This document shows positions 15,494 to 17,763 of a stretch of DNA of 24,000 nt, piece by piece (the stretch's first letter is position 1; every line of letters starts with the position of its first letter). The notes under the pieces were generated by a model. It did not search any database. It saw only the letters and a list, made by a program, of their open reading frames with translations, and was not told where the DNA came from. This DNA comes from Oxalobacteraceae bacterium (GTDB taxonomy: Bacteria > Pseudomonadota > Gammaproteobacteria > Burkholderiales > Burkholderiaceae_D): positions 25,208 through 49,207 of the forward strand of contig CBDAEJ010000003.1 in assembly GCA_965194545.1 (NCBI GenBank), written 5' to 3'. Both the position numbers and the translations under genes were made by a program.

Positions 15494-16321
15494 GTGACGG
15501 TCAACGCGCTTTATTCATGTGTATCCAGCCCATGCAGCAATACGCAAAACAATCAGATCATCAGCAGGTCCGTCTTGGCTGAGACACGCGACACTACTGG
15601 CGGTTTGCGCTGGCATTTGCGCGCACTGTGGCGCCGCCGTCAGTGGCACGAGACTACGCGGCAAATCGCTGAATGGCTTGATACCACCCAGCCTGCATCG
15701 CGCCATTTATTGCTGATCGGCGGCAGCGCGGGTTGGATGATGTCTGGACGCTGGCTACAGCGATTCTCGCGCATTGATCTGATCGACCTTGATCCGTTTG
15801 CGTATCGCCTGTTTAGTTGGAATCACGGACGTGCTTTGCGCGAATCTGGCACCGAGTTGCACTACGCTTCGATCGATGCGCTCGCGAATTTGGATGCGCT
15901 TTTACGAAAGCACCCGGATGCGACACTCTTTTTCGACAATGTCTTAGGTCAGCATTTGTTCCGGATATGGCAGATTGAGCGTGCTGAAGCCGATCTGGCC
16001 CGCACTGCCCAACAGCTGAAGGGTCGCGACTGGGGTAGTGTGCATGACTTGTTCTCAGGGCCGACCGACCCGCTCAAGGTACCCGTCTCAGCAGTCACGC
16101 AATTCGATGCCGTACGCGACGCGAATGGGCTTCTGGCAGACGGCTTGCGCGGAACGCCGCTTCACCTGCGGCTGCTGGCACAGGTGGGTGGTCAGCCAGA
16201 GTGGGTGGATCATCTGACCTCTGAGCTGTTCCCCGTGGGTACGACTAGTCGCCTGATTGCCTGGCCGTTCGTGCCGGACTATGCACACTGGCTACAGGCA
16301 GGATGGGTGTCAGGCAGGTAG
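15494..16321 (+). CDS. Hypothetical protein with Rossmann-like (methyltransferase-like?) motifs
   Basis: 275-aa ORF with coding-like composition and no competing long ORF. HLLLIGGSAGW...RIDLIDLDP...LFFDNVLGQ loosely resembles class-I SAM-MTase motifs I, II and IV. The N-terminal 30 aa look non-native, so the true start may be downstream (for example TTG 15575). Confidence 0.55.
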   Translation: MTVNALYSCVSSPCSNTQNNQIISRSVLAETRDTTGGLRWHLRALWRRRQWHETTRQIAEWLDTTQPASRHLLLIGGSAGWMMSGRWLQRFSRIDLIDLDPFAYRLFSWNHGRALRESGTELHYASIDALANLDALLRKHPDATLFFDNVLGQHLFRIWQIERAEADLARTAQQLKGRDWGSVHDLFSGPTDPLKVPVSAVTQFDAVRDANGLLADGLRGTPLHLRLLAQVGGQPEWVDHLTSELFPVGTTSRLIAWPFVPDYAHWLQAGWVSGR

Positions 16322-16346
16322 GCCTCTGCGGAAGCACCGATGCATT

Positions 16347-16419
16347 CTCGTCATGCAGGCGCAGGCCGGTATCCCGTGTTTCGATGTTGCTGGACCCCGG
16401 CCTTCGCCAGGGTGACGAG
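16347..16419. repeat. 73-bp imperfect palindromic element: two inverted copies of the REP-like unit (BIME/MITE-like)
   Basis: The termini are CTCGTCA (16347-16353) and TGACGAG (16413-16419). The left arm is CTCGTCATGCAGGCGCAGGCCGGTATCCCG. The reverse complement of the right arm is CTCGTCACCCTGGCGAAGGCCGGGGTCCAG. The arms are 23/30 identical by my count. The right arm is 25/31 identical to the unit at 7814-7844. Confidence 0.7.
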
Positions 16420-16521
16420 CTAAATTTATTTCCCTCGACCTAATTTTCTGGTTACAAGTGTCGATTTCCGAATATCGCTAGAATCCCGCCCATCAAGCCT
16501 CGTGGATGGAGAAATGAGTTC

Positions 16522-17328
16522 ATGAAACATCTCGCCTTGCCCCTATTCGTTGCTGTTTCGCTGGCGGCACCTGCGCTGGCGAAAGACCCCGCGCCAGCGG
16601 CCCCGGCTCGTCCGCCATCCCCCGGCGCCAAGCATTCACCACGCGCGCCACTATGGAGCTACGACGGTGAGACTGGTCCCACGAAATGGAGCGAGCTGGA
16701 CCCGAAGTTTCGTCTCTGCCAATCCGGCAAGCGGCAGTCACCGATCGATATCGAGACCCAGACGGTGGAGCGTGGTGGTCTTAAGCCGATCATGTTCAAC
16801 TATGCCGCTGGTCCGCTCACGCTGGTGAACGGGAACAACACGATTCAGGTGAATTTCACGACCAGTGGTGGCGCGCGTCTGGACGGTCTGGAGTACAAGC
16901 TGGTGCAGATGGTGTTTCATGCACCGAGTGAAGAGAAGATTGATGGTATCGCCACGCCGATCTCAGCGCAGTTGATTCATCGTGCGGGTGATACGCGTAC
17001 CGCCGTGGTGGCGATTCGCTTCAAGCTGGGCAAAGAGAACAAAGCCCTGAAACCAATCTTCGAGCGACTGCCCAAGACCGACGCCTTCAATGAGACGGTC
17101 GAGAGCTTTAACCCTTCGGATATCTTGCCCGCCAATCCTGCTTACTTTACGTATATGGGTTCACTCACGACACCGCCTTGTACCGAGGACGTGAAGTGGT
17201 TTGTGATGCGCCAGACGGTGGATATTTCCTTCCGTCAGTTGGCTGCGTTTAAGGAGCGTTACAAGTCGAACTCAAGGCCTTCACAGCCGGTCAATGGGCG
17301 GCGCGTGCAGGAGTATGTCGAGGAATAA
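16522..17328 (+). CDS. Secreted alpha-class carbonic anhydrase homolog (apparently degenerate metal site)
   Basis: There is a signal peptide (MKHLALPLFVAVSLAAPALA|KD). Alpha-CA hallmarks are present: WSYDGETGPTKWSEL, FRLCQSGKRQSPIDI, FHAPSEE, YMGSLTTPPCTEDVKWFV, NSRPSQPVNGRRV. The canonical QFHFHxPSE reads QMVFHAPSE here. Confidence 0.85.
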   Translation: MKHLALPLFVAVSLAAPALAKDPAPAAPARPPSPGAKHSPRAPLWSYDGETGPTKWSELDPKFRLCQSGKRQSPIDIETQTVERGGLKPIMFNYAAGPLTLVNGNNTIQVNFTTSGGARLDGLEYKLVQMVFHAPSEEKIDGIATPISAQLIHRAGDTRTAVVAIRFKLGKENKALKPIFERLPKTDAFNETVESFNPSDILPANPAYFTYMGSLTTPPCTEDVKWFVMRQTVDISFRQLAAFKERYKSNSRPSQPVNGRRVQEYVEE

Positions 17329-17379
17329 TAATCGGCTGACTCATCAAACGCTGACTACTACTGAAATCGTTGCGGCTTT

Positions 17380-17763
17380 TTACAGCTTTTCTAGCGACTG
17401 ATGCAGTCGCAGCAGCTTTTCTTTGAGGACTGGGTCAGCGTCGACCATGGGGGCAATACTGGGCACGACTCGGCGTCCCGCATCGGTCGGATCGGTTTTC
17501 GGTTGTGCCGCAGGCTTAGACGTCGGCATCAGCCAAGCAGCAGTTAACAGCAGCGTGAGGCACAGCCAGAGTATCCACACGGTACTTGCCGAGACACTGC
17601 CAAGGTGCATCAGCTCGGGCAGTTCGCGCAGCCAGCCAGCCCAATCCAGGCGCAACCACCAAAGGACGTTCTCTTGCACTTTGCAAGTCCAGACAAAGGC
17701 GAGTCCAAACAAAGTCCAGTTAATCGCAAGTAGGGCAGCGGGCAAGCGGATGCGGAGGGTCAT
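17380..17763 (-). CDS. Small 2-TM membrane protein, unknown function
   Basis: 127 aa with two hydrophobic helices (AALLAINWTLFGLAFVW; TVWILWLCLTLLLTAAWLM). The C-terminal tail is Pro/Lys-rich and ends in a short amphipathic helix (LKEKLLRLHQSLEKL). The gene starts 4 nt after the upstream coiled-coil gene stop. Confidence 0.55.
   Translation of the reverse strand: MTLRIRLPAALLAINWTLFGLAFVWTCKVQENVLWWLRLDWAGWLRELPELMHLGSVSASTVWILWLCLTLLLTAAWLMPTSKPAAQPKTDPTDAGRRVVPSIAPMVDADPVLKEKLLRLHQSLEKL

Follow-up and report, generated by a model that had tools for sequence, protein, structure and literature searches.

A conserved alpha-carbonic anhydrase homolog with a dismantled zinc site in an uncultured freshwater genus of Burkholderiales

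Whether a member of the family of alpha-carbonic anhydrases (alpha-CAs) is still an enzyme once residues that bind its catalytic zinc have been replaced is the question raised by one gene of an Oxalobacteraceae bacterium (assembly GCA_965194545.1). The gene lies at positions 16522 to 17328, on the forward strand, of the window, by which we mean the whole 24,000-nucleotide stretch of contig CBDAEJ010000003.1 that was analyzed (contig positions 25,208 to 49,207). A preliminary description of the gene had noted a missing zinc-ligand histidine and had proposed either an inactive binding protein resembling the carbonic anhydrase-related proteins (CARPs) of vertebrates or an altered metal site. We place at roughly 70% the probability that the product is a conserved, non-catalytic, CARP-like periplasmic protein, whose zinc site was dismantled in a single conversion on one stem branch that was followed by strong constraint.

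Alpha-CAs bind zinc through three histidines, His94, His96, and His119 in the human CA II numbering that is used here for active-site positions. Residues of the protein were mapped by four alignments that agreed with one another: phmmer alignments to the sequences of crystal structures 6eki, 4xz5, 6im0, and 4x5s, a MAFFT alignment with human CA II (the reference sequence was checked as identical to 1ca3), the family alignment, and a hidden Markov model alignment. Both metal-binding strands align without gaps to the four crystal-structure sequences, QMVFHAPSEE against QFHFHAPSEH and ISAQLIH against FEAHFVH. The gene and the active-site positions located by these alignments are the following.

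16522..17328, forward strand: coding sequence (CDS) of the putatively zinc-less alpha-CA-like protein, 268 amino acids plus stop (from the list of open reading frames and the sequence).
16831..16839, forward strand: Gly104-Asn105-Asn106 in place of Asn62-Gly63-His64, with Asn106 (AAC) at the proton-shuttle position.
16912..16914, forward strand: Val131 (GTG), where zinc ligand His94 would stand.
16918..16920, forward strand: His133 (CAT), zinc ligand His96, retained and encoded by CAT or CAC within the clade.
16930..16935, forward strand: Glu137-Glu138, the gatekeeper Glu106 (kept) and a Glu at the His107 position.
16963..16971, forward strand: Ser148-Ala149-Gln150, a Ser at the Glu117 position and a Gln (CAG) at the position of zinc ligand His119.
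17164..17172, forward strand: Leu215-Thr216-Thr217, the retained Leu198-Thr199-Thr200.

The three-histidine triad required of an alpha-CA enzyme (EC 4.2.1.1) is absent, and positions 94, 96, and 119 read Val-His-Gln (V-H-Q; the canonical triad is abbreviated H-H-H). The preliminary description was correct in its reading frame, its quoted motifs, and all of its codon coordinates, and the loss of the first ligand that it reported is borne out by all four alignments. Its count of a single lost ligand was too low, however, in that the glutamine of SAQLIH, which it had labeled the His107 equivalent, is Gln150 at the position of His119, the third zinc ligand. Nor does its alternative of a site with two histidines plus another ligand survive, as one ligand histidine (His96) is left, beside Gln119. 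The remaining candidate, His153 (CAT, 16978-16980), corresponds to His122 and is not a ligand, and because the whole CA domain holds only two histidines (His133 and His153), a shift of register cannot rebuild a three-histidine site. Alignment to the Pfam PF00194 profile and to bacterial alpha-CAs, the check that the description had proposed, likewise places no three histidines at the canonical ligand positions. In human CA II, substitution of a single ligand costs about 10^4 to 10^5 in zinc affinity and activity, and a site made of one histidine and one glutamine amide presumably could not hold zinc at enzyme-like affinity. Judged from the sequence, both zinc binding and catalytic activity have probably been lost.

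The proton shuttle, also described as missing, is indeed replaced: NGNNT occupies the place of NNGHT, and the residue at position 64 is Asn106 in 10 of 10 members of the clade defined below, against His in 19 of 21 canonical members of the genus. Some active carbonic anhydrases also lack His64, so that this loss alone is not disqualifying. The changes of His119 to Gln and of His64 to Asn each take one nucleotide change, and Val131, encoded by GTG in all eight clade CDSs, is three nucleotide changes from CAY.

Two further departures from the textbook active site are subfamily-wide traits outside the lesion, because a Glu at the 107 position and a Val or Ser at the 117 position are shared by all 120 nearest homologs, including an alpha-CA of Cupriavidus necator (P0102). 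The PSEE motif, listed earlier as a retained hallmark, is present, although its second Glu sits at the true His107 position and represents one of these traits. The rest of the cone is largely preserved. Equivalents of the CO2 pocket are kept (Ile152 for Val121, Val162 for Val143, Leu215 for Leu198, Val224 for Val207, and Trp226 for Trp209), as are Gln92 and the gatekeeper pair of Thr216 (Thr199) and Glu137 (Glu106), which is invariant in the clade. Thr160 stands at the Leu141 position and Gly104 at the Asn62 position.

These replacements are set in a full-length alpha-CA homolog with an intact fold. The protein matches PF00194 with 137 bits (cutoff, 27; E = 9e-40) over profile positions 2 to 252 of 254, and phmmer matched the bacterial alpha-CA sequences of PDB entries 6eki, 4xz5, 6im0, 4x5s, 4c3t, and 1kop at E values of about 1e-50; an NCBIfam search with the protein matched no model. 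An AlphaFold2 model built on a 50-sequence alignment has a mean predicted local distance difference test score (pLDDT) of 82.9, with values mostly below 50 for residues 1 to 43 and block means that, from residue 71 onward, mostly exceed 90, also in the strands bearing the altered residues. In a Foldseek search of the PDB with this model, bacterial alpha-CAs rank first, with target-normalized template modeling (TM) scores of 0.89 to 0.92 (4xz5, 4x5s, 4coq, 6im0, and 1koq). Cys66 and Cys220, which correspond to the Cys23-Cys203 disulfide pair of bacterial alpha-CAs, do not vary across 50 sequences, and the motifs SPIDI, PSEE, SLTTPPCTE, and NSRPSQPVNGR are all present. The protein is predicted to be exported to the periplasm, on the basis of an N terminus with signal-like features (basic start, hydrophobic core, and A-L-A cleavage motif) that are conserved across orthologs. 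The corresponding features of the gene are as follows.

16508..16511, forward strand: Shine-Dalgarno-like GGAG, 10 nucleotides 5' of the ATG (read from the sequence).
16522..16581, forward strand: predicted Sec-type signal peptide, residues 1 to 20, MKHLALPLFVAVSLAAPALA, followed by KD and without a lipobox Cys.
16582..16650, forward strand: Pro/Ala-rich linker, residues 21 to 43, KDPAPAAPARPPSPGAKHSPRAP, with pLDDT below 50 in the model.
16651..17313, forward strand: alpha-CA fold domain, residues 44 to 264 (AlphaFold2 and Foldseek).

The RPPSPGA motif of the linker is also present in the closest of the canonical sister species. The scan for promoters and terminators nowhere exceeded shuffled expectation, and 16250-17450 yielded no sigma-70-like promoter.

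The source genome (2.8 Mb in 7 contigs, 99.99% complete) encodes one PF00194 protein and one beta-CA, the latter without a signal peptide. A homolog of the alpha-CA-like gene, almost always single, occurs in 55 of 57 species genomes of an uncultured freshwater Burkholderiales genus, which divide into two sets. Eight of the 57 species (G000, G047, G069, G046, G014, G022, G006, and G024) encode a protein whose identity to the one described here is 89% or higher, and every member of this set that was read out carries V-H-Q together with Asn64. In the remaining species with a full-length homolog the protein is 52 to 66% identical, and all 20 that were read out carry H-H-H and His64. Two metagenomic proteins, P0002 (80% identical) and P0003 (77% identical), are likewise V-H-Q. 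The replacement of the first histidine by valine, for which the preliminary description suggested a comparison of orthologs, is therefore common to eight species and to P0002 and P0003. Records of relatives are metagenome-assembled genomes (MAGs) labeled Oxalobacteraceae, Burkholderiales, Burkholderiaceae, or Betaproteobacteria, and several isolate names suggest ponds and lakes. Some third-party annotation bins of the genus (L024, L027, and L030 to L032) are titled "uncultured Bifidobacterium sp.," an evident taxonomic mislabel.

The same V-H-Q residues recur in independent MAGs of various lake and pond origin, as well as in other metagenome contigs. This bears on the suspicion that the altered triad is an artefact of misalignment or sequencing error, which might be raised because the first alignment was made by eye. 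With that recurrence, with the gap-free alignment of both motifs to the four sequences of crystal structures, to human CA II, and to 120 homologs, and with only two histidines in the domain, we regard an artefact as having almost no probability.

Is the altered gene the enzyme gene itself or a diverged copy of it? V-H-Q and H-H-H species share one gene order and orientation, consisting of a 275-amino-acid gene, the CA gene, a convergent 127-amino-acid gene, a 159-amino-acid gene, a ParA-like ATPase gene, and a MotB gene. Because the neighbors are identical in order and orientation across both sets of species, the zinc-less gene is a single-copy positional ortholog of the enzyme gene and not a diverged paralog. 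Between the sets, the CA genes are 61 to 66% identical, similar to the neighboring hypothetical genes (60 to 70%). Within the V-H-Q set, with the nearest strains excluded, the CA-like gene is about 89 to 96% identical, compared with 72 to 86% for its neighbors.

Maximum-likelihood (ML) trees unite the V-H-Q proteins in one clade with 100/100 support, and this conversion arose once. The stem of the clade measures 0.44 substitutions per site under sparse sampling and 0.53 under denser sampling; the denser tree places it as sister to the canonical P0004-P0012 group (98/75), which has a stem of 0.10. At 35 positions the clade is fixed for a residue absent from 18 canonical members of the genus, and among these are the cavity positions 62, 63, 64, 93, 94, 119, 121, and 141 by the mapping to human CA II. 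The stem changes at cavity positions did not add any His, Cys, Asp, or Glu. Part of the sequence of events can be read from P0004, a protein of 66% identity that has H-H-H and His64, and in which 3 of the 35 changes (Asn76Asp, Thr134Ala, and His146Pro) are already present; those changes therefore preceded the loss of the ligands. The zinc triad is kept but His64 replaced (by Gln and Arg) in P0018 and P0030, which belong to the neighboring canonical clade.

Two side observations concern other members of the genus. P0018 and P0030 also have Leu in place of Phe93, and such proteins may mark a first step toward degeneration. P0035, a protein of 249 amino acids beside L013 in the tree that stands for 36 member sequences, is H-H-N by a change of His119 to Asn and lies inside an otherwise canonical species group.

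A long stem and missing catalytic residues could also mean that constraint was relaxed and that the gene is decaying. Selection within the clade does not have that character. Pairwise Nei-Gojobori dN/dS ratios among V-H-Q members are 0.011 to 0.042, with dS ranging from 0.13 to saturation (1.2 to 3.2 among the deepest members, where synonymous sites are saturated), compared with 0.02 to 0.10 for canonical pairs of similar dN. Fitted by ML, the Goldman-Yang codon model puts omega at 0.025 in the set of eight V-H-Q CDSs, compared with 0.071 in the set of twenty canonical ones. When amino-acid branch lengths are divided by third-codon-position branch lengths with the topology fixed, the stem gives 0.425, the V-H-Q crown 0.077, and the canonical branches 0.224; the measure is sensitive to saturation, so that the stem value is perhaps inflated. 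The record is one of a burst of change and then a constraint about three times tighter than that on the enzyme, and because of this order a decaying gene is excluded. The reading frame is moreover intact in 8 of 8 species and in further contigs, and the signal peptide and disulfide cysteines are kept; drift toward a pseudogene after a recent loss of function is accordingly an explanation to which we assign very little weight.

Constraint extends to the altered residues themselves. Codons vary synonymously while the residue is fixed at Asn64 (AAC/AAT), His96 (CAT/CAC), Ser117 (TCA/TCC), and Gln119 (CAG/CAA). Q92, H96, E106, T199, L198, W209, V211, and N244 are invariant in the clade and V143, T200, and V207 nearly so, and the new residues V94, Q119, N64, I121, and T141 are likewise conserved across members that are 77 to 100% identical. 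Residues that vary in the clade make up 5 of 28 cavity positions and 66 of 193 positions elsewhere, a difference that is not significant (Fisher P = 0.13). The features by which a CARP is recognized functionally, an alpha-CA fold, loss of zinc histidines, and purifying selection (omega of 0.025), are found together here, and the earlier proposal of an inactive CARP-like protein gains support from the V-H-Q triad with its lost shuttle and partly replaced second shell, from the fixation of these residues, and from this omega; the binding role is one that we infer.

The same conservation can be read in the opposite direction, as that of a protein that still catalyzes a reaction, either as a carbonic anhydrase with a noncanonical metal site or a metal-free mechanism (using His96, Gln119, Glu106, Thr199, and water) or as a new hydrolase or lyase acting in the hydrophobic pocket. 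Several points weigh against a purely non-catalytic protein. The CO2 pocket and the Thr199/Glu106 pair are kept and the cavity is, if anything, less variable than the rest, which fits surviving or new catalysis as well; conservation is highest in the active-site cone, for old and new residues alike; omega is lower than in true enzymes; Gln can weakly coordinate zinc; and the gene neighborhood offers no clue to a ligand or partner. Dioscorin, which has the alpha-CA fold, is furthermore reported to have both carbonic anhydrase activity, by a His-Asp dyad, and dehydroascorbate reductase activity (a secondary source; PMC7463553). On the other side, one of the three ligand histidines remains, the cavity positions gained neither His nor Cys, Asp, or Glu on the stem, the proton shuttle is lost, and even one ligand substitution is as costly in human CA II as described above. 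Human CARPs whose triads are comparable lack activity, and putting H-H-H back returns it to them (PMC4981384). We consider a surviving or new enzyme unlikely, though it is the strongest of the competing explanations.

In the account that we favor, that of a conserved non-catalytic protein, an ancestral single-copy H-H-H gene was converted in place through some 35 substitutions that became fixed along a single stem branch. The changes of His94 to Val, His119 to Gln, and His64 to Asn dismantled the zinc site, with the rest of the cone kept, and the protein most likely ceased to hydrate CO2 at an enzyme-like rate. Its role is probably one of binding or scaffolding, by means of the remodeled cavity or of a surface in use already in the ancestral enzyme. 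On the simplest account, that enzyme would have filled such a role from before; alternatively, the remodeled cavity would have acquired a ligand-binding role that is new. Animal CARPs have protein partners. Because the sole copy was converted and no other exported carbonic anhydrase was gained, the V-H-Q species have probably given up periplasmic alpha-CA activity and kept the protein for another purpose.

Two candidate explanations drawn from other genes found no support. Compensation by another carbonic anhydrase, or an accompanying loss of bicarbonate transporters, is not reflected in copy numbers, which are alike in V-H-Q and H-H-H species: all V-H-Q species have one beta-CA, as does most of the genus, and there are 2 to 4 SulP genes throughout. 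A functional link to an upstream vitamin-K-carboxylase-like (HTTM) gene pair, whose product would be a CO2-using enzyme, likewise went unsupported. The pair lies 0.7 to 2.3 kb from the 275-amino-acid gene in sister species, and the 263-amino-acid HTTM-module protein was not found in four genomes of other families that have the alpha-CA.

Other observations on the locus and the genus may be set beside these. The 127-amino-acid protein with two transmembrane segments that is encoded convergently to the CA-like gene (17380-17763, reverse strand) evolves fast, being 34 to 47% identical between V-H-Q and H-H-H species, compared with 60 to 85% for flanking genes. In other members of the clade (L025 and L028), the 275-amino-acid gene and the CA-like gene are separated by only about 90 bp. 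One species, G050 (100% complete), stands alone among the high-quality genomes of the genus in having no real alpha-CA homolog (best E = 5e-4); its second beta-CA, different from the first, may serve as a replacement.

How unusual is the V-H-Q triad among bacterial alpha-CAs? Among the 120 nearest homologs, 113 are H-H-H, five belong to the V-H-Q clade, and the other two are P0035 (H-H-N) and P0115 (Q-H-H), which agrees with the earlier judgment that such a change would be unusual in a bacterial alpha-CA. In a broader survey of triads, made with a representative library at 50% identity, the best matches are giant tandem-CA proteins, many of whose domains have degenerate triads. These proteins (P0121 to P0139, P0156, P0172, and P0222) are 800 to 3000 amino acids long with 4 to 14 tandem alpha-CA domains, and their degenerate triads are mostly X-His-Gln or X-Arg-Gln. 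About 44 of some 65 complete triads other than H-H-H in the survey have Gln119, and about 29 are X-His-Gln, counts that are not independent since the domains are interrelated.

A single-domain protein of 258 amino acids in the library, P0230, shares the V-H-Q triad and has Tyr at 64 and Ile at 93. Its sole close relative, P0271 (62% identical), has the same triad, the same Tyr at 64, and an aliphatic residue at 93, and the next 118 relatives of the two, at most 48% identical, are all H-H-H. The pair resembles the protein described here in its triad, its loss of His64, its aliphatic residue at 93, and its single domain; it differs in being only about 40% identical, in nesting among other H-H-H relatives, and in keeping PSEH and Glu117. 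By this placement, P0230 and P0271 reached the identical triad independently, in an unrelated bacterial lineage. The gene for P0271 (L038:687-1487) shares its contig with genes typical of sugar metabolism and sugar modification in bacteria, which encode a phosphoglucomutase (PGM/PMM), a DegT-type aminotransferase, and a PglD-like protein.

The recurrence of X-His-Gln may reflect a shared function, or it may reflect a structural need, with His96 and a His-like Gln119 serving in the hydrogen-bond network of the fold. A wider proposition can be put forward tentatively, as one that we think could well be wrong: that bacteria have CARPs of their own, exported proteins of the alpha-CA fold that have repeatedly and independently become zinc-less with an X-His-Gln triad, as in animal CARP X, and that in the present case a single-copy enzyme was converted without duplication. 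If this is true, the periplasmic alpha-CA would already have served a second purpose apart from catalysis, for example docking to a partner in the envelope or the sensing of CO2 or bicarbonate, and once catalysis was abandoned selection would have preserved this function and even tightened its hold on it. In the literature consulted, acatalytic alpha-CA homologs are described for animals only (PMC4981384), and a full-text literature search found no description of a bacterial CARP, an absence there that is not proof of absence.

The genus is of use to these questions in that it holds both states of the same gene at the same locus, with intermediates (P0004 on one side, P0018 and P0030 on the other), and so amounts to a dated natural experiment. 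Conversion of the only copy, with selection about three times stronger afterward, points to a second function that the periplasmic carbonic anhydrase had beforehand. The match with animal CARPs of the R-H-Q type suggests a tractable bacterial model for what a zinc-less cavity binds. In annotation, sources that give these proteins a name use "carbonic anhydrase," a label that would mislead inferences about carbon cycling from freshwater metagenomes.

Compared with known systems, the protein is closest to the periplasmic alpha-CAs of bacteria, with which it shares fold and length class at 35 to 38% identity (4xz5 of Thiomicrospira, 6eki and 6im0 of Persephonella, 4x5s and 4g7a of Sulfurihydrogenibium, 4c3t of Thermovibrio, and 1kop of Neisseria gonorrhoeae). 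Common to both are the Sec signal, predicted in the present protein, the disulfide pair, the motifs SPIDI, PSE, SLTTPPC, and NxRPxQPxNxR, the Thr199/Glu106 pair, and the hydrophobic pocket; the protein differs by Val for His94, Gln for His119, Asn for His64, and Gly for Asn62, and hence lacks the defining zinc triad. The C. necator protein P0102 belongs to the same betaproteobacterial subfamily, with PSEE and without Glu117. C. necator (Ralstonia eutropha) H16 has a single alpha-CA gene, caa, whose product Caa is an active periplasmic enzyme (422 EU/mg on CO2; PMC3904209); P0102 may differ from the Caa of H16.

Dioscorin, the storage protein of yam tubers (PDB 4twl), offers a second comparison. 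It matches at a phmmer E value of 3e-34 and ranks eighth in the Foldseek search with a target-normalized TM score of 0.84, and its active site, too, is unlike that of alpha-CAs, but it is a vacuolar protein of plants, with the reported activities that were weighed above.

The metazoan CARPs (VIII, X, and XI, together with those of cnidarians, sponges, and molluscs) are alike in type: they also have the alpha-CA fold, the replacement of at least one zinc histidine, and conservation by selection. Their triad is R-H-Q, or more broadly R/H/Y-H/R-Q/H, and R-H-Q recurs in CARP X and in cnidarians, sea urchin, oyster, and sponges (PMC4981384); His96 and Gln119 of the present protein match it, with Val instead of Arg at position 94. 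Descent is another matter, for the protein nests within one Burkholderiales genus as sister to canonical orthologs, and its nearest structures are those of bacterial alpha-CAs rather than metazoan CARPs, so that it has an origin of its own in a single bacterial genus, where it is predicted to be periplasmic. Some secreted CARPs of cnidarians are recent duplicates adjoining an active carbonic anhydrase (PMC4981384), whereas here a single-copy ortholog was converted. If non-catalytic, the protein would add a new bacterial form to a type of pseudoenzyme already known, and it has an unusually clean evolutionary record.

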